From Escherichia coli 042 (GTDB lineage Bacteria > Pseudomonadota > Gammaproteobacteria > Enterobacterales > Enterobacteriaceae), in NCBI RefSeq assembly GCF_000027125.1, contig NC_017626.1: a DNA stretch of 64,000 bases; one strand, 5' to 3'. Below the pieces are notes generated by a model, which saw only the letters and a list, made by a program, of their open reading frames with translations, searched no databases and had not been told where the DNA came from. The translations under genes were made by a program, and so were the position numbers. This document shows positions 42,901-49,903 of the stretch, piece after piece; position 1 is the first letter of the stretch; each line of letters opens with the position of its first letter.

Positions 42901-43112
42901 TGGTTTACCAGTGTTCCGCCATTCACTGTTTCACCCGGGTGCACAACGATGTCAGCAGCCAGCACCGGGAGTGACGTGACTGCGGCAAGAGACAGTGCAA
43001 CCGCCACACCGCCACGTTTACCCCGTGCGCGGGCCAGTTCGGAGGCAACCACGAAAGCGCCCGTAATGTGATTCCATACCAGCCTGTAGCAGGTATTCAG
43101 ATGTCGTTTCAT
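39993..43112 (-). CDS. flu: Antigen 43 self-associating autotransporter adhesin
   Basis: ORF 39993-43118. Extended autotransporter signal peptide MKRHLNTCYRLVWNHITGAFVVASELARARGKRGG..., a repetitive G/T/N-rich beta-helix passenger, and a C-terminal beta-barrel ending ...QATLNVTF. Confidence 0.95.
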   Translation of the reverse strand: MKRHLNTCYRLVWNHITGAFVVASELARARGKRGGVAVALSLAAVTSLPVLAADIVVHPGETVNGGTLVNHDNQFVSGTADGVTVSTGLELGPDSDDNTGGQQIARGGTARNTTVTANGLQDVMAGGSATDTVISAGGGQNLRGQAYGTVLNGGEQWIHAGGSASGTVINQSGYQTIKHGGQATGTIVNTGAEGGPESENVSSGQMVGGTAESTTINKNGRQVIWSSGMARDTLIYAGGDQTVHGEAHNTRLEGGNQYVHKYGLALNTVINEGGWQVIKEGGTTAHTTINQKGKLQVNAGGKASDVTQNTGGALVTSTAATVTGTNRLGAFSVLAGKADNVVLENGGRLDVLSGHTATNTRVDDGGTLDVRNGGAATTVSMGNGGVLLADSGAAVSGTRSDGTAFRIGGGQADALMLEKGSSFTLNAGDTATDTTVNGGLFTARGGSLAGTTTLNNGATLTLSGKTVNNDTLTIREGDALLQGGALTGNGRVEKSGSGTLTVSNTTLTQKTVNLNEGTLTLNDSTVTTDVIAQRGTALKLTGSTVLNGAIDPTNVTLTSGATWNIPDNATVQSVVDDLSHAGQIHFTSTRTGKFVPATLQVKNLNGQNGTISLRVRPDMAQNNADRLVIDGGRATGKTILNLVNAGNSGTGLATTGKGIQVVEAINGATTEEGAFVQGNMLQAGAFNYTLNRDSDESWYLRSEERYRAEVPLYASMLTQAMDYDRILAGSRSHQTGVNGENNSVRLSIQGGHLGHDNNGGIARGATPESSGSYGFVRLEGDLLRTEVAGMSLTTGVYGAAGHSSVDVKDDDGSRAGTVRDDAGSLGGYMNLTHTSSGLWADIVAQGTRHSMKASSGNNDFRARGWGWLGSLETGLPFSITDNLMLEPRLQYTWQGLSLDDGKDNAGYVKFGHGSAQHVRAGFRLGSHNDMTFGEGTSSRAPLRDSAKHSVRELPVNWWVQPSVIRTFSSRGDMRVGTSTAGSGMTFSPSQNGTSLDLQAGLEARVRENITLGVQAGYAHSVSGSSAEGYNSQATLNVTF

Positions 43113-43143
43113 CAGCATTTCCTTAATCAGAGTGAGGGTGAAT

Positions 43144-43177
43144 AAAAAAGCCGGTATCCACAGATGTGGATACCGGC
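43144..43177 (-). terminator. Intrinsic-terminator-like hairpin inside the flu 5' leader
   Basis: The minus strand reads gccggtatccac-atct-gtggataccggc followed by tttttt, about 30 nt upstream of the flu start codon. Confidence 0.55.
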
Positions 43178-43299
43178 AGGTAAAGGGTTACAGTGCCGGA
43201 GGTCCGGCTGACGGAAGTTTCTGACGTGTGGCTCTGTTGTTCCCTGAATCTCATGTCTGTGTGTATCTGCGCACGTTGCTAACAGGAGTTATTATTAGC

Positions 43300-43345
43300 A
43301 TGACGATCGATATAAACGATCGATAAAATAGGTATCGATCGTTTT
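43300..43345 (-). promoter_or_regulatory. agn43 (flu) phase-variation region: three GATC sites / OxyR operator
   Basis: GATC at 43305-43308, 43318-43321 and 43337-43340, within tgacGATCgatataaacGATCgataaaataggtatcGATCgtttta. Three closely spaced Dam sites overlapping the OxyR site are the known agn43 switch. Confidence 0.75.
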
Positions 43346-43445
43346 ATTCTATTATCAGGCTATTGCACGGACAAGAGAGACAGTAACGAAAACAGCGCTT
43401 TTGTGAGCAGACTCAGAGGCAGGGAGGACATCATCCACAACAGGT

Positions 43446-44318
43446 TCAGAAGAAGATCCAGTTCCATACCGCGCGGGCAACAGAGACCACGGTGTCACGA
43501 ACAGCGCGCAGGGCCGTACGGACAACAGAGGCAACACAGACGCTCTCCGCTGTGTCAAATATCCGGTCCACCGCACCGGTAAACTGTTCACGGGCCTGAG
43601 AGCGGACAGACTCCGTGCGCAGCTCGTCCTGCAGTCGGGTCATCAGGGGGCTGGCGGCATGGTCGGGAAGCGCTGTCATGAGCGCACTGACCAGCGTATC
43701 CAGTTCCCAGCCGGTGCGGGCCGATACGGCAACAACCGGATGTACGGGCCGGAACAGACGGAATACCGCCTCCGTTTTCTCACGAATGTTCTGTTCCTGT
43801 GCGGGAGAAGGCTGAATACCTGCCATATCCCATTCATGGCAGGGTTCCGTTTTGTCAGCCTGCGTCACCACAAACAGCACCTGCTGATGTCCGCACTGCA
43901 GGATGTGTCGCCAGAAATACTCATCCACAGACAGGGCCCGGTCATCGGCTTTAATCAGCCACAGCACCAGGTCCAGTTCAGGCAGAATGTCACGGTACAG
44001 GGCTTCATACTCTGCATCCCTGTCCCGGCTCTCGCCCACCCCGGGCAGGTCAGTGATAACCATGCTGTGACCGTGACCACTCAGACGGAAGCGCTGCACT
44101 TCCCGGGTGCCGGCGTGAACATCACTGACCGGTGTGACCTCCCCCTGAAACAGTGCATTACAGAGTGAAGATTTACCGGCCCCGCTTTTACCCATAATGC
44201 CAATCACGGGTTCGTGACTGGTGAGTTTGCGCAGATGTTCCAGGATGTGACGGGAAAGTGAGTAAGGCAGGGAGGAGAGCGGTTTTTCAATTGCCTCAAT
44301 GGCATCAGACGGATTCAT
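43446..44318 (-). CDS. YeeP/YfjP/YkfA-family GTPase
   Basis: ORF 43446-44357. The ATG at 44318 gives MNPSDAIEAIEKPLSSLPYSL... with the P-loop GIMGKSGAGKSS and a DLPG (G3) motif. Confidence 0.85.
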   Translation of the reverse strand: MNPSDAIEAIEKPLSSLPYSLSRHILEHLRKLTSHEPVIGIMGKSGAGKSSLCNALFQGEVTPVSDVHAGTREVQRFRLSGHGHSMVITDLPGVGESRDRDAEYEALYRDILPELDLVLWLIKADDRALSVDEYFWRHILQCGHQQVLFVVTQADKTEPCHEWDMAGIQPSPAQEQNIREKTEAVFRLFRPVHPVVAVSARTGWELDTLVSALMTALPDHAASPLMTRLQDELRTESVRSQAREQFTGAVDRIFDTAESVCVASVVRTALRAVRDTVVSVARAVWNWIFF

Positions 44319-44427
44319 ACATGTATTCCCGGTGAAAAAAGACAAAACCCCGCGCACCGGAAAGGTGGCGGGGGATTCACGGAGATAATATCTGTCTGAG
44401 ATTATTTAGAATGTAACAGGTAATGAA

Positions 44428-45447
44428 TTACTTCCTTCGCTTGTGTTCAAGATATTTCTCTGTAATCAGCATTTCAAAAAACTCTCCTGTTCTCAGACCG
44501 TAAACAGTTCTGAGCTCATCAAGCATTTCTTTCACATTGCTTCTTATATGTATATTAATGGCCTTTTTACCATCACTCCGATATTTGTCCTTTTGTTTTT
44601 TCTGATGCCAGGCATGATTTATTCGTGTTCTGAACAGTTCAATGGTATCAGGCGCTTCTTTCCATAAAGCAAAGGCGACAAGAGAGGCAAGATAATATTC
44701 TTTCGTTGAAGATGGTATGAACCACCGGGTCACTGGGTTATGTACTGGATGTTTTTCATCCTGTTTTTGTTTCAGTCTTGTCCAGAACCACTGACACATT
44801 TCATCATCGTCAGGAAGGAACCACTTAAACTTTTGACAAGCGCTTTTCTTTTTAAGCCACGCCTGCCTGAGTTCCTCGAGGTATATGCTTTTTGCATTTT
44901 TATTAATTAAAGAATGGCAGGAGTCAAAATATGAAATGATTACTTTTATTCGTTCGTTATGGGATGATGGATTATCCGGAAGGTTACTTTTTTTGTAAGT
45001 ATTTAACGTTTCATCGGTAACTGTTCGTATTTTCCTGACTTCAATTCCGTTTTTTATTCCTGATGAATTATGGTTTATTTTCGGGAATTTTGTATGGTCT
45101 TCCTTCGACAGATAAATAGTAGTCCAGGTAAAGAAAGTCGCAAGTTCGTCAGTTTTCAACCAGAGAAAACTCTCTTCAGGCAGTATTGCCTGCCCTGCAA
45201 TAATTTCAAGTTCATTAATTTCTTTGCTGAGAGCTTCTTCTGCAGTCGAACCAAAAACACCAAAAGAATTGTTTGAAGCTTTATAATACTTTTCTTTTAA
45301 AAACGAATTAACATTTCTGATACAGTTTTGTGGGTTGTCAGGCGCAAACTGAGGGAATTCATTGGGGTATTTGTGATTCAGATATTCGGCATAAAACCGA
45401 CATTTACGGGGATCTTTGCATTTGATAAGCATCTGTTCGTTATTCAT
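44428..45447 (-). CDS. Hypothetical 339-aa AT-rich protein with a putative C-terminal ribbon-helix-helix
   Basis: Long ORF in visibly AT-rich DNA, MNNEQMLIKCKDPRKCRFYAEYLNHKYPNEF.... The C-terminus KAINIHIRSNVKEMLDELRTVYGLRTGEFFEMLITEKYLEHKRRK has a strand-helix-helix pattern. No family recognised. Confidence 0.55.
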   Translation of the reverse strand: MNNEQMLIKCKDPRKCRFYAEYLNHKYPNEFPQFAPDNPQNCIRNVNSFLKEKYYKASNNSFGVFGSTAEEALSKEINELEIIAGQAILPEESFLWLKTDELATFFTWTTIYLSKEDHTKFPKINHNSSGIKNGIEVRKIRTVTDETLNTYKKSNLPDNPSSHNERIKVIISYFDSCHSLINKNAKSIYLEELRQAWLKKKSACQKFKWFLPDDDEMCQWFWTRLKQKQDEKHPVHNPVTRWFIPSSTKEYYLASLVAFALWKEAPDTIELFRTRINHAWHQKKQKDKYRSDGKKAINIHIRSNVKEMLDELRTVYGLRTGEFFEMLITEKYLEHKRRK

Positions 45448-46941
45448 TATCTCACTCCATGTCGCCTCTCTTATAACAAAATCGTCTCAATTTTATTTTG
45501 TCACTAAGTGATTATCAAATGTTTTTGTTGTGATTTGTTTATGTTTTTAAATGTCTATGTCATGTTATCAGTGTTTTTATATAAAGATACATTGATGTTT
45601 TTATGATGGTGAAAAATCATATTTTCTTTTATATTCATTTGGTTATGATTGTTTGTTCTGCATTTGGGGGATGACAGAAAAGAATGGGCTGTGTTGATCA
45701 CATGCGCCGTATGCGCTGTCCAGGTTACAGCGCACCTCAATATTCAGTGTTTTCCTGTTGACTGGCATTGTTAATCTTATGTTTTTGGTTTTGTTTTATT
45801 GTGTGGTTGTGAATGTTGTGTTTGGTTTGATGGTTGAGAAAGAAAAAAGAAGACTATGATGCACTAATCAGGAAATATTTTCGACGCCGGTTGAGTTAAA
45901 AGAACAGATAGAGTGGACAGGTGTTGTGTTAATAGTTTACGGCTGACAGCATTCTTATTTTAATAACAGGTGTTATTATTTATGGATTTATACAGACGAT
46001 ACTCCCGCTAAATAGTCAGGTGATGATGGTCGTTGAGTGGTTTTATAAGCTACGTATAGCTCTGTAAGACTTATTAATTCAACGATGACTACCGTTTATT
46101 GATATACATGTATTCGGGAAATGTCATAAAAAATGTCACGTTGTTTGCAGAATCTTTTGTTTTTTAGTTTTTGATACGCAATGACTAAGCAGGAGGACTC
46201 ACTTTGTTTGTATGCTGACCGTGATCGTCAGTGGAGATGAACAATTGACTCTTACACTGAAAAATATACTCTCTTGTTTTTTATCGTTTATCTGCATGAA
46301 ATAAATAATCTTCAGCATTTTTCATGTGAATTTCATCATCTTACCCTGAATGTTCATTTTATCAGTATGATATTCCTTTGTTTACTGATAAAATTAACCG
46401 ATAAATGTTCTTGTTAAGATTGCCAGAATGACAGTTTTTGCTGATTCCGTGCAATGGAAGAGATATTATATCATCTATTTAAGCAATAAGTTTAATACAA
46501 ATTTCAGAAGATGTGTTGGTGAGTTGATGACTAATTTTCAGAGGGGGATGGAAAAGTGTATGGAATCCCACAAAGAAAAAATCGTTATTGTTCAGTTGAC
46601 GTTTATTTCTGGGTGATGACTCCAGTCAGCAGAATATGTTTTTTTCGATGAATGACCCAATAACTTTTTCGTGAATTTCCACGGAGCATGAAAAGCAAAT
46701 CGTTTTCCGGTCCAGCCGTTTGATGTGGGAACGGGGGCAGATGGTGGTGCTCAATGCGCCGGGTAAATATCAATACGATTTGAGGAACCATTTGCTGGTT
46801 AATCTCTTTCCGATAGCATTGGATGCAGCAATCACTACATCCAACGTGAATAACCATGAATTGCACAGAAACAATATACCTGCGACCCTCTCCGGAAATT
46901 CCGGTATCACTGACTACGTACCGCCCGGGAGTGATTATGAA

Positions 46942-47514
46942 TCAACAGGCGTATAACAGGTACTCGTCAATCATCAGTTCAAGCTCGCGCTTTTCCCGTT
47001 TGCGCGCCACAGCCCAGCTTTCAAGTTCTGCGTGTGATTTATGCTTTAACTCTTCAGTCCAGGGCTGCATGGAGTGGGCGCACATCAGATCATACCAGCA
47101 CAGCCATATCAGGGTGTGGTAGAGATCGCGATCGTCAAAACGCCGGAGCAGACTGTTCAGCCTGTTTGCCAGTCGGCTTTCTCCCAGACGATGTAGTTCA
47201 CTGAGTAAAACACCACCCAGGTTAAAATGTGTAAGTAACATGATTTCATGAGTCTGAATGCTGGTCATTAACCCTTCCTGAATGGCAGGAATGAACGGTG
47301 GCGTTGCCGGGTTGACTACCTGATAGAGTCCCTGTGGTGCCACCGAGATGATGGTGCCTTTTTCCGGCAGAAAAAAGTGGGCCAGGGTCAGGCGATGATA
47401 ACCATGAAGATGCGGAGAGCCCATTCCGTGAGCGACAATAAACCGGGTTACACTTGCCATCCATTTCTGATGCTGGGTGAGCAGCAGATCACACCGGTTT
47501 TCAAGTTTTTGCAT
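46942..47514 (-). CDS. Hypothetical 190-aa protein co-oriented with alpA
   Basis: ORF 46942-47541. The ATG at 47514 is preceded by the SD AAAGGAGAG and lies 85 nt downstream of the alpA stop. MQKLENRCDLLLTQHQKWMASVTRFIVAHGMGSPHLHGYHRL.... No family recognised. Confidence 0.6.
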   Translation of the reverse strand: MQKLENRCDLLLTQHQKWMASVTRFIVAHGMGSPHLHGYHRLTLAHFFLPEKGTIISVAPQGLYQVVNPATPPFIPAIQEGLMTSIQTHEIMLLTHFNLGGVLLSELHRLGESRLANRLNSLLRRFDDRDLYHTLIWLCWYDLMCAHSMQPWTEELKHKSHAELESWAVARKREKRELELMIDEYLLYAC

Positions 47515-47599
47515 AATATTCTCTCCTTTAGCACGCAGCAAAATGCCTCCGGAGGCCGGATAGTGTATTCGCTGCGGTTGAACGGGTAATGGTCAGGAA

Positions 47600-47806
47600 T
47601 TACGGACGGGATTGTGCAATACGCGCCTGCAACCAGGCTTCCACTTCACTTTTCAGCCATCGGGAGCTGCGGCCGAGTTTGATGGGGGCCGGAAAGGCAC
47701 CATCCTTGATGAGCTTGTAAAACCACTTATCGGTTAAGCCGGTCAGTTGAGTGATAAACGCCATGTCGACCATCTGGTCATCCATCAGCGAAACTGGGGT
47801 ATTCAT
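47600..47806 (-). CDS. alpA: AlpA-family phage/island transcriptional regulator (MerR-like HTH)
   Basis: ORF 47600-47878. The ATG at 47806 has the SD GGAGG. MNTPVSLMDDQMVDMAFITQLTGLTDKWFYKLIKDGAFPAPIKLGRSSRWLKSEVEAWL... Confidence 0.85.
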   Translation of the reverse strand: MNTPVSLMDDQMVDMAFITQLTGLTDKWFYKLIKDGAFPAPIKLGRSSRWLKSEVEAWLQARIAQSRP

Positions 47807-48504
47807 GAAAATGTTCCTCCGGATGTTGTTAATCTCAACCGGCGTTGGTGATGAAAAACGCACCACCTTCACTGGCATAACAACCGGGGAGAAACGTAAA
47901 AAATGAGCAGGGGAATATTCCTGTCGGGAGATAAACAGGGAGCATGATGCTGGGATACCCGGTGGCTACCGCGAAACGATGTTTCTCGCGCGTACGCACG
48001 ACAGAGAAGGGATGATTTTCGGGAGGATGAGGGGAAGAACCGTCGTTCTTATAATTGCAGAGTTATTTACGGGGCGGTTACGGTGGGGCAGCTCGTGCCT
48101 TGTGGGCAGGGACAGGTATCACCGATGGGATAAGACTGTCTGATTGGTATTATAAATATATAAGAGAGATCAAACACATGAGTTCATATCTGTGAAATAA
48201 ACACTGTGAGTGTGATCAGTGGGTATGAGAACGCAGTAGCAACAGATTACGTTGTACTCACAGGGCTATCCCTGATAGCTGGCGTATAACCTGCGTATAT
48301 AAAACGTACCTGCAACACACGTGAACAGAGTGCATTAAGCATCCGTCTGAGCGGTAAACGTATCCGACCTGGTGAGTGACAGTCTGAGAGACCGGTTAAG
48401 TGGTGGTGCGGGAGTAATGAGTTTGGGGTGGGTACCAGAATGCCAGTCAGGTGCGGTATGCTGGCAGTATCACGTTAATTGCAGCATAAAGTGATGAGAG
48501 GCTA

Positions 48505-48717
48505 ATGGAAGTTAAAACCAAAGAAGACTGGCTGTATCAGTTCCGTCGTTGTTCATCCCGGGAGACGCTGGAAAAAGTGATTTCCCACACACGTTATAAA
48601 CTTACCCTTGCGGAGCTGGAAGCCTTCAACTCTGCGGTTGATCACCGACTGGCAGAACTAACCATGAACAAACTTTACGATCGCGTTCCGGCTTCTGTCT
48701 GGAAATATGTTACCTGA
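48505..48717 (+). CDS. Hha/YmoA-family H-NS co-regulator paralogue
   Basis: 70 aa. ...[14 protein letters not shown]...[36 protein letters not shown] matches by eye the Hha signature RRC..TLERVIE...[27 protein letters not shown]. Confidence 0.85.
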   Translation: [70 protein letters not shown]

Positions 48718-48956
48718 ACGTTCGGTAATCACAGCGGTATTGTGCCGGGCGTTATATGCCTGTGATTCTTTTGCTCTTCTCTGGTTGCTGCAAAGCTGAA
48801 TATGTTCCTGTTGTTGGAGGCCGAGGTAATACCGGGAACGTTAAGCGGTATAGCGACAACAAAGAATTCGAAATCAAAAGGGAATGGTGTACGGAGGTGC
48901 GGGCGGTAATGGGCCGATTTTCGGGCATTACCGACCTCTGCTGAGGTTTTCTCGTA

Positions 48957-49130
48957 TTAGCCGGGGATCCGGTGCGTTGAATATTGACGGCATAAACCGA
49001 CAGGCAGAGTCAGCACCAGCAGTGACGTCAGTAGACAGCGCCGACGATCGGTATTCCGGTAATGGGCAACATCCGTATTATGAGTAATTGCCTTACCACA
49101 ATCCCTGCACACCGTTTTGTGTATCACCAT
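48957..49130 (-). CDS. Possible unannotated 57-aa small protein (CxxC + one TM helix)
   Basis: Manual translation gives MVIHKTVCRDCGKAITHNTDVAHYRNTDRRRCLLTSLLVLTLPVGLCRQYSTHRIPG*. Strong SD GAGGAGGGAG immediately upstream of the ATG at 49130. Below the ORF-track cutoff. No homology evidence. Confidence 0.3.
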   Translation of the reverse strand: MVIHKTVCRDCGKAITHNTDVAHYRNTDRRRCLLTSLLVLTLPVGLCRQYSTHRIPG

Positions 49131-49333
49131 AGCTCCCTCCTCACAGTCTTATCTGTAACCGGTTTTTGGCATTAAAAAAACAACGCTGAAAATTCAGCCG
49201 TCAGTCCGGAGACGACAATCGGGTTATCACAGAGTGCCTGAGATATTGCCCGGTTGGAGGTCACTTCAGGGACTCTGCGCATTTTTTACGGCGTGGTTAT
49301 TCCGTATGAACGAAACCATACGGAGATTTAACC

Positions 49334-49903
49334 ATGACATACGAGTACAACCCCTTCTGGCAACAACGTATCCGTGAGACGGTGCTGCGCGCACTGGATG
49401 TTCATCCCCGTCTGACGGCATTGCGGATTGACCTGCGTCTCCCGGATGTACCGGCAGCAACTGACGCAGCAGTGATATCCCGCTTCATCAATGCCCTGAA
49501 AGCCCGAATCGATGCTTATCAGAAGCGTAAGCGCCGTGAAGGCAAACGCGTGCATCCCACAACCCTGCATTACGTCTGGGCCCGGGAGTTTGGGGAGTGC
49601 AAAGGTAAAAAACACTATCACCTGATGCTGCTGGTCAACCGGGATACCTGGTGTCGTGCCGGCGATTACCGCGCTCCGGGATCACTGGCCGGGATGATTA
49701 AACAGGCGTGGTGCAGTGCCCTGGGAGTGGATACCGGAGATCATACCACGCTGGCGCATTTTCCGGTCAGGCCGGCGGTGTGGCTGGAACGCGATGATGA
49801 CACCGGCTTTCAGCAGGTGCTGGAGCGTGCTGACTATCTGGCGAAGGAGAGTACCAAAGCTTACGGCACCGGTGAGCGCAACTTTGGCTGCAGTCGTGGC
49901 TGA
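49334..49903 (+). CDS. Inovirus Gp2-family protein (YagK/YfjJ family)
   Basis: 189 aa, MTYEYNPFWQQRIRETVLRALDVHPRLTALRIDLRLPD...HYVWAREFGECKGKKHYHLMLLVNRDTW...; pattern recalled from CP4-6 YagK / CP4-57 YfjJ. Confidence 0.75.
   Translation: MTYEYNPFWQQRIRETVLRALDVHPRLTALRIDLRLPDVPAATDAAVISRFINALKARIDAYQKRKRREGKRVHPTTLHYVWAREFGECKGKKHYHLMLLVNRDTWCRAGDYRAPGSLAGMIKQAWCSALGVDTGDHTTLAHFPVRPAVWLERDDDTGFQQVLERADYLAKESTKAYGTGERNFGCSRG

Follow-up and report, generated by a model that had tools for sequence, protein, structure and literature searches.

The described systems closest to the locus analyzed in this study are the upstream regions silenced by H-NS, such as those of bgl, proU, and the locus of enterocyte effacement (LEE), together with the hotspot of insertion sequences (IS) at flhDC. 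Also comparable are the zones of Rho-dependent termination that act together with H-NS in the silencing of foreign DNA, and the operators placed between the -35 and -10 elements of promoters under ribbon-helix-helix (RHH) or helix-turn-helix (HTH) autoregulators. In xenogeneic silencing, binding by H-NS and Hha is expected where AT-rich DNA is accompanied by an hha gene of its own, and the spacer between the -35 and -10 elements is a classic position for a repressor operator. The locus considered here is a gene-free tract at positions 45448-46941 of a 64,000-nucleotide stretch of Escherichia coli 042 (contig NC_017626.1), the whole of which is referred to as the window. It lies upstream of a minus-strand gene for a 339-amino-acid (aa) protein, and a first-pass annotation had called it far longer than a normal E. 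coli promoter region.

The tract is probably a composite non-coding spacer, in which the relic of an IS1-family element adjoins the AT-rich upstream region of the 339-aa gene, within a CP4-44-like Ag43/hha island. The parts of the tract are as follows:

45448-46611 (1164 bp): AT-rich, non-coding spacer that makes up the long stretch upstream of the 339-aa gene
45777-45853 (77 nt): run without G on the minus strand (without C on the plus strand), where 39 nt were expected (p<0.003); it holds a GT-rich run
46612-46898, minus strand: degenerate IS1-family relic, an IS1-like terminal repeat followed by a frame like InsB 75-162 with a stop and a frameshift
46899-46941: junction linking the IS1 relic to the stop codon of a 190-aa gene

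With H-NS-silenced upstream regions, the tract shares a very low GC content, an excess of A/T tracts, an hha paralogue in the island, and repeated IS insertions. It differs from them in the lack of significant A-tract phasing and in its length, as the approximately 1.2 kb found here is longer than most characterized regions. As in Rho-dependent termination zones, the DNA is untranslated, and on the strand common to the neighboring genes it has more C than G over most of its length and includes the 77-nt G-free run; unlike in those zones, the match is purely compositional, and the upstream gene is divergent in other genera. The operators between -35 and -10 elements are matched by an 11-bp palindrome that lies in the 17-bp spacer of the predicted promoter and is conserved across genera while its flanks vary. 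In contrast to them, a single site is present rather than an array, and the match of the 339-aa protein to an RHH domain does not reach threshold. What is new is the conserved palindromic putative operator and the family-wide long gap, which add detail on a regulator without amounting to a system of a new kind.

The bulk of the spacer would act, if at all, through its composition rather than its sequence. One route would be a binding and nucleation zone for H-NS together with Hha, and such a platform would fit both the composition and the nearby hha paralogue. The other route would be the untranslated, G-poor stretch with more C than G on the minus strand, where Rho would keep read-through from the co-directional alpA and 190-aa genes out of the genes for the 339-aa protein, the GTPase, and Ag43. 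Termination of such read-through is plausible because the genes flanking the tract all share the minus strand, the scan predicted no intrinsic terminator downstream of the 190-aa gene, and the minus-strand RNA would be untranslated, weakly structured, and richer in C than in G. By analogy, the AT-rich part may resemble in its behavior the AT-rich DNA that lies upstream of horizontally acquired genes and is silenced by H-NS, Hha, and Rho.

Composition, coding content, and the IS1 relic

The composition described by the first-pass annotation was borne out. The GC content came to 35.9% over the tract as a whole and to 33.2% in positions 45448-46611, against a mean of 50.5% for the window, which is the low level looked for in a region silenced by H-NS/Hha, and the AT-rich part was the minimum among all 1164-bp windows of the 64 kb. 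A/T tracts of at least four nucleotides numbered 33, compared with 21 +/- 4 in shuffles. The GT-rich string that had been quoted lies at 45781-45836 and contains no C, and the longer C-free run around it forms the core of a zone with more C than G on the minus strand. In this zone the C/G ratio ranged from 2 to 24 (80-nt windows, 45782-45981), and it exceeded 1 in most of the tract. The tract hence includes what is looked for in the composition of a Rho utilization (rut) zone, namely an untranslated, C-rich, G-poor, and weakly structured stretch of about 80 nt or more. The patch of normal GC was also found as described, with 49% GC at 45661-45760. Finally, the tract was the longest gene-free gap in the half of the window annotated by the Prokaryotic Genome Annotation Pipeline (PGAP), with 1178 bp up to the IS1 pseudogene, followed by gaps of 698 and 506 bp.

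The right-hand 290-330 bp or so of the tract (46612 to ~46900/46925, minus strand) are the eroded remnant of one or more IS1-family elements. PGAP placed a pseudogene named "IS1 family transposase" at 46626-46770, and a six-frame Pfam search identified DDE_Tnp_IS1 (PF03400) with E=5.6e-12 over profile positions 53-130 of 131. In a tblastn search with InsB, residues 75-162 aligned to 46644-46898 (E=2e-11) with an internal stop. The sequence GGTGATGACTCCAGTCAGCAG at 46612 resembles the IS1 terminal repeat. The suspicion of a gene remnant in the right-hand 250 bp or so was therefore well placed, and the normal GC noted there was confirmed (47.9% in the 261 bp of 46680-46940). At the DNA level the relic did not align to IS1A, as it was too diverged, and only the protein-level comparison worked.

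The relic proved to be shorter than some of its counterparts. Strains w264 (L003) and WP2-S18 (L010) hold approximately 606 bp more between ~46767 and 46771, including an insA-like frame, which makes the window copy a deletion derivative, apparently one in which this deletion brought two IS1-like pieces together. When window positions 46764-46771 were compared with L003:4301-4908, the junction read like an in-frame join of two InsB-like pieces. A complete IS1 has both insA and insB, with a programmed frameshift, and is bounded by two terminal inverted repeats some 768 bp from each other. The window copy has no insA, and a second IS1 end was not found, even with the longer L003 copy included, so that the copy is a relic and not an active IS. 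Most comparison loci also had about 86 bp extra between 46923 and 46924, as seen from split blastn alignments (L003:5068-5153).

The tract holds no credible coding frame. The coordinates and the count of four open reading frames (ORFs) of 61-87 aa given for this ORF-poor tract were both reproduced:

45555-45740, minus strand: ORF of 61 aa
46428-46616, plus strand: ORF of 62 aa
46603-46866, minus strand: ORF of 87 aa
46720-46956, plus strand: ORF of 78 aa

The longest ORF of the AT-rich part had 61 aa, compared with 60.9 +/- 15 in shuffles. As the scarcity of ORFs matches the shuffle expectation, it points to non-coding DNA and to nothing stranger. PGAP annotated no intact gene in the tract in any of 245-247 E. 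coli genomes, and no feature of any kind within 45448-46611 among 245 genomes. Outside the IS1 relic, no Pfam match was obtained in six frames, and a concatenate of all 48 stop-free segments with a length of 18 aa or more gave no match at E<=10 among 5.8 billion proteins. An all-against-all peptide comparison revealed no peptides common to the gaps of different genera. Positions 45448-46611 had no match in plasmid and phage collections and no extra copies in E. coli genomes outside the island. This part is unique, AT-rich, untranslated DNA.

These results bear on whether the AT-rich part is one or more decayed genes, for example a paralogue of the 339-aa gene truncated by an IS1 insertion at 46612. 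The gap is about one gene long and abuts the IS relic, and the 62-aa ORF stops exactly at the relic boundary. The start of this ORF also resembles, weakly, the N-terminus of the 339-aa family (RYYIIYLSNKF/RFYAQYLDNKY). The resemblance was not significant with the family hidden Markov model (3.1 bits, E~0.07-0.1), the ORF is frameshifted in several haplotypes, and the searches by profile, by protein, and by shared peptide all came back empty, which makes gene decay improbable. Of the pseudogene fragments that a protein-level search had been proposed to reveal, the IS1 relic at the right end of the tract was recovered, while none was found in the remaining 1164 bp, and the suggestion of a decayed gene did not survive for that remainder.

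Two structures in the AT-rich part were of interest as possible RNA elements:

45713-45733: 7-bp-stem hairpin GCGCTGT/ACAGCGC, within the patch of 49% GC
46352-46398: 16-nt inverted repeat, 94% complementary, with a 15-nt loop; the sole local fold outlier

The first of these had been correctly located in the first-pass annotation, which also raised the possibility of a long structured leader or a non-coding RNA (ncRNA). Either a long leader at the 5' end of the 339-aa transcript or a separate ncRNA would accord with the unusual length, the conserved strand asymmetry, and the fold z-score of -4.1 at 46280-46399 (plus strand) around the inverted repeat, and a small RNA (sRNA) gene, IS102/isrC, occurs elsewhere in the island. 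Both versions are nonetheless very unlikely. At E<=1, the only Rfam match over 43000-49500 was IS102/isrC, outside the tract, and the gaps of seven related loci had no Rfam match. Sliding 120-nt folds had mean z-scores of -0.48 and -0.31 relative to dinucleotide shuffles, hence no general signal of RNA structure. In most of the other sampled haplotypes, the 3' arm of the 7-bp hairpin changes from GC to TA or TC, with two pairs lost and no compensation, and no T-run follows it on either strand, so that this hairpin is probably fortuitous. Similarly, the arm substitutions of the 46352-46398 repeat in other haplotypes were not compensatory. The best predicted promoter lies only 43 bp from the ATG, the tract diverges at a neutral level, and a conserved distal module in the gaps of other genera has no consensus structure.

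Predicted promoter and palindrome of the 339-aa gene

Next to the 339-aa gene, the following elements were identified:

45518-45490, minus strand: predicted sigma70-type promoter (TTGATA, 17-bp spacer, TAAAAT), ending approximately 43 bp before the ATG at 45447
45501-45511: perfect 11-bp palindrome TCACTAAGTGA (TCACT-A-AGTGA) in the promoter spacer, a putative operator
44362-44338, minus strand: terminator-like hairpin and T-run, between the 339-aa stop codon (44428) and the GTPase start (44318)

The predicted promoter, with its -35 element at 45518-45513 and its -10 element at 45495-45490, was the best promoter-like site of the scan (10/12 matches). Among 12 E. coli haplotypes, the -35 hexamer and the palindrome were invariant, and the -10 element was either TAAAAT or TACAAT. 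The promoter region could be aligned across four genera. The palindrome TCACTAAGTGA occurs exactly once in the 64 kb. In seven of the eight lineages of the family, AATCACTNAGTGA was present at -62 to -77 from the ATG; it was the sole k-mer common to four or more gaps, and shuffles yielded none. An inverted repeat that overlaps the core promoter and is conserved among orthologous loci is the arrangement of an operator for a dimeric repressor. The 339-aa promoter is hence predicted to be controlled through the palindrome as a candidate operator. Its binder would be a dimeric regulator from the island, and autoregulation by the 339-aa protein is one possibility. The terminator-like hairpin suggests that the 339-aa gene forms a transcription unit of one gene.

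The 339-aa protein belongs to a small family, with 10 clusters among the 5.8 billion proteins, all in enterobacterial islands. Eight lineages were sampled, comprising E. coli with close relatives, Edwardsiella, Rahnella, Yersinia, Serratia, and three metagenomic loci. Identity to the E. coli protein was 58% in Edwardsiella tarda, 47-49% in Rahnella, Yersinia kristensenii, and the three metagenomic lineages, and 30% in Serratia, and many Trp, Cys, and Lys positions were invariant. PGAP names the protein either "hypothetical protein" or "transcriptional regulator". It had no match among PADLOC and NCBIfam models, and a PDB sequence search returned matches at chance level only.

Long upstream gaps in related islands

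A gene-free, AT-rich gap of 0.6-1.7 kb was found upstream of the family gene in all eight lineages:

E. coli: 1164 bp (plus the IS1 relic)
Edwardsiella: 1089 bp
Rahnella: 1557 bp
Y. kristensenii: 1377 bp
Serratia: 1613 bp
Three metagenomic loci: 565, 1683, and 797 bp

In each locus with enough genes called for comparison, this gap was the largest intergenic one, and the unusual length that had been remarked on for E. coli is thereby a trait of the gene family across genera. The GC content of the gaps was 33-43%, compared with 53-58% in the neighboring GTPase gene (four loci measured). On the sense strand, A exceeded T and C exceeded G in seven of the eight lineages, and significantly long G-free runs occurred in five to six of the eight.

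The gaps of some genera carry a bipartite non-coding module, in which block 2 (CTTCTTTAATATATTAATACCAATCCAACACA) is followed after about 90 nt by block 3 (TCACTCTGGAATTATC). Both blocks were present 480-700 bp upstream of the start codon in Serratia, a metagenomic locus (L025), and Edwardsiella, and more loosely in Y. kristensenii:

L023:5412-5540 (Serratia): blocks 2 and 3
L025:3230-3370 (metagenomic): blocks 2 and 3
L015:5280-5400 (Edwardsiella): blocks 2 and 3
L020:5395-5525 (Y. kristensenii): blocks 2 and 3

A pattern scan of metagenomes added 10 instances (L027-L036), eight of which precede a family gene of the Serratia type by about 475-490 bp. The blocks were nearly invariant even where the proteins are just ~30% identical. 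Neither a consensus RNA structure nor an Rfam match was found for the module, and nhmmer detected neither block in the E. coli tract. The module shows that such gaps can carry constrained elements, and this evidence does not transfer to the E. coli tract. In the Y. kristensenii gap, a perfect GC-rich hairpin (TTACCGCCCCCTT-TTCGGGT-AAGGGGGCGGTAA) was observed between blocks 2 and 3 (L020:5430-5475), which looks like a terminator or a repetitive extragenic palindromic (REP)-like element.

The long gap could be a conserved cis-regulatory module of CP4-44-like islands, of which the E. coli tract, where the G-free run reaches 77 nt, would be a diverged version, although this is unlikely. Such a module might serve as a long leader under Rho control, as a distal operator for DNA looping, or as an H-NS/Hha-dependent insulator that sets the expression of the regulator, the GTPase, and Ag43.

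A cis-acting origin of replication or transfer, comparable to the region upstream of gene II in filamentous phages and used by a Gp2-like protein, is extremely improbable. In Edwardsiella, Rahnella, Yersinia, and the metagenomic locus L024, the gap is located directly upstream of a divergent gene for a Gp2-like protein, and block 2 of Serratia contains TTCTTTAATA, which is identical to the nick-site core of f1 gene II. This 10-mer was exact only in Serratia-type sequences and was not found in the E. coli tract or in most other gaps. In E. coli, the inovirus Gp2-like (YagK/YfjJ) gene lies 2.4 kb off, past alpA, the 190-aa gene, and hha; the tract contains no tandem repeats or iterons, and it evolves neutrally. 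An f1-like nick site or origin in the gaps was rejected, as no consistent motif emerged.

The surroundings of the E. coli tract are a CP4-44-like Ag43/hha island, which adjoins a type VI secretion cluster. The tract is 100% identical to positions 3435070-3436563 (minus strand) of E. coli 55989 (NC_011748.1), and it was found at 80-100% identity in 247 of 5,426 complete E. coli genomes (~4.5%), in the chromosome in every case. On the minus strand, the order is the AlpA-like gene, the 190-aa gene, the tract, the 339-aa gene, the GTPase gene, IS102/isrC, and agn43:

48505-48717, plus strand: hha paralogue, 1.6 kb from the tract
47600-47806, minus strand: AlpA-like regulator gene
46942-47514, minus strand: 190-aa hypothetical gene
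44428-45447, minus strand: 339-aa gene
44318 (PGAP start), minus strand: YeeP-like GTPase gene, next after the 339-aa gene
43137-43342, minus strand: IS102/isrC sRNA, full length (Rfam RF00124, 255 bits), between the GTPase gene and agn43
agn43, minus strand: beyond the IS102/isrC sRNA, last in the listed gene order

Extra copies of hha have been tied to Ag43 islands of this type (PMC4864382, PMC6480617), and the published work on hha2/hha3 and irmA says nothing about the tract. The island of strain 13E0767 is truncated by IS21, and a comparison with an "empty site" was thus uninformative. A second gene-free stretch of ~630-700 bp, with a strong positive GC skew, separates the AlpA-like gene from the hha paralogue (47879-48504). 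A weaker copy of IS102/isrC (49 bits) occurs at the matching position in Edwardsiella tarda (L015:8116-8359). In related islands, genes for ATPases with AAA_15/AAA_21 domains were located near the AlpA/Gp2-like module in Edwardsiella (L015:1-2908), Rahnella (L017:1-1743), and Serratia (L023:2417-4387). The Edwardsiella and Rahnella ATPases also have an OLD-like TOPRIM domain, and the Edwardsiella one neighbors a UvrD-helicase (Gabija-like). These ATPase genes suggest that the AlpA/Gp2-like end of related islands holds defense cargo.

Divergence and a possible compositional role of the spacer

An alignment of 12 loci from E. coli, Shigella, and E. ruysiae was used to measure nucleotide diversity (pi). 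It was 0.088 for positions 45448-46611 and 0.074 for the IS1 relic. In the two flanking genes it amounted to 0.066-0.077 at third codon positions, against 0.014-0.025 at the first and second. The AT-rich part thus diverges at about the neutral rate, with its bulk unconstrained in sequence terms; only the gene-proximal ~70-250 bp are conserved at that level. The tract and the gene beside it also form a strong recombination mosaic (44428-46771, compared with L009, L006, and L007). For example, the 339-aa gene of L009 is 99.8% identical to that of the window and its tract just 87.9%, while L007 is identical to the window over 45846-46145 and diverged on either side.

The chief competing explanation is that everything beyond the proximal ~70-250 bp of promoter and operator and the IS1 relic is functionless, horizontally acquired debris that has drifted toward AT and awaits deletion. 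This is a real, if doubtful, possibility. Besides the neutral-level divergence, indels of 1-39 bp are scattered along the tract, IS3-family elements have inserted into it in strains HZ13 and A2 (L005, L011), and strain XYEH3934 (L012) retains the proximal 460 bp only. For the E. coli type, nothing past the proximal block is conserved between genera, and mutation bias yields AT-richness. Set against this, the gap is kept in eight of eight lineages despite proteins that are 30-58% identical to the E. coli one. Its length varies by only about 5% (1114-1164 bp) across haplotypes up to 13% divergent, and all 12 haplotypes retain a GC content of 33-35.5% and a plus-strand GC skew of +0.20 to +0.27 (G well above C). 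G-free runs recur on the sense strand, and other genera keep their distal blocks. Taken together, these features speak for constraint on such gaps, at least in part.

Several observations weigh against a spacer that acts through H-NS, Rho, and a regulator bound at the palindrome. The proposed involvement of H-NS and Rho is read from composition, and AT-biased mutation of unconstrained DNA would yield such a composition too. The AA/TT periodicity peaked at 10.9 bp and was not significant after multiple testing, and the H-NS high-affinity motif TCGATAAATT had four matches at <=2 mismatches, as expected in AT-rich DNA. The truncation in L012 means that the distal part is dispensable, at least in that strain. 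As the upstream neighbor is divergent in other genera, insulation from read-through does not account for the gap in general. Promoter-like sites in the region showed no excess (nine, compared with 8.6 in shuffles). For the 339-aa protein, the C-terminal match to the RHH domain RepB-RCR_reg of Pfam was below threshold (E=0.043; 14.2 bits where the cut-off is 21) and occurred in one of the six members scanned, the E. coli one, with precomputed matches listed for homologues; the AlphaFold model was unusable (predicted local distance difference test, pLDDT, of 46). Given the weak assignment to DNA binding and the unusable model, the binder of the palindrome stays putative.

A composite non-coding spacer remains the preferred reading, and it resolves what had looked odd in this pathogenicity-associated island: the seemingly vacant 1.5 kb consist of an IS1 wreck and an AT-rich upstream spacer, and in all likelihood not of a hidden gene or structured RNA. 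For the island regulator, whose carriers include the O104:H4 outbreak strains, testable elements are now at hand in the form of a predicted promoter with a genus-spanning palindromic candidate operator and a candidate silencing or insulating zone that separates the alpA module from the regulator, GTPase, and Ag43 genes. Should the gap prove functional, it would add modestly to the known ways in which islands acquired by horizontal transfer stay quiet, rather than reveal a new principle.

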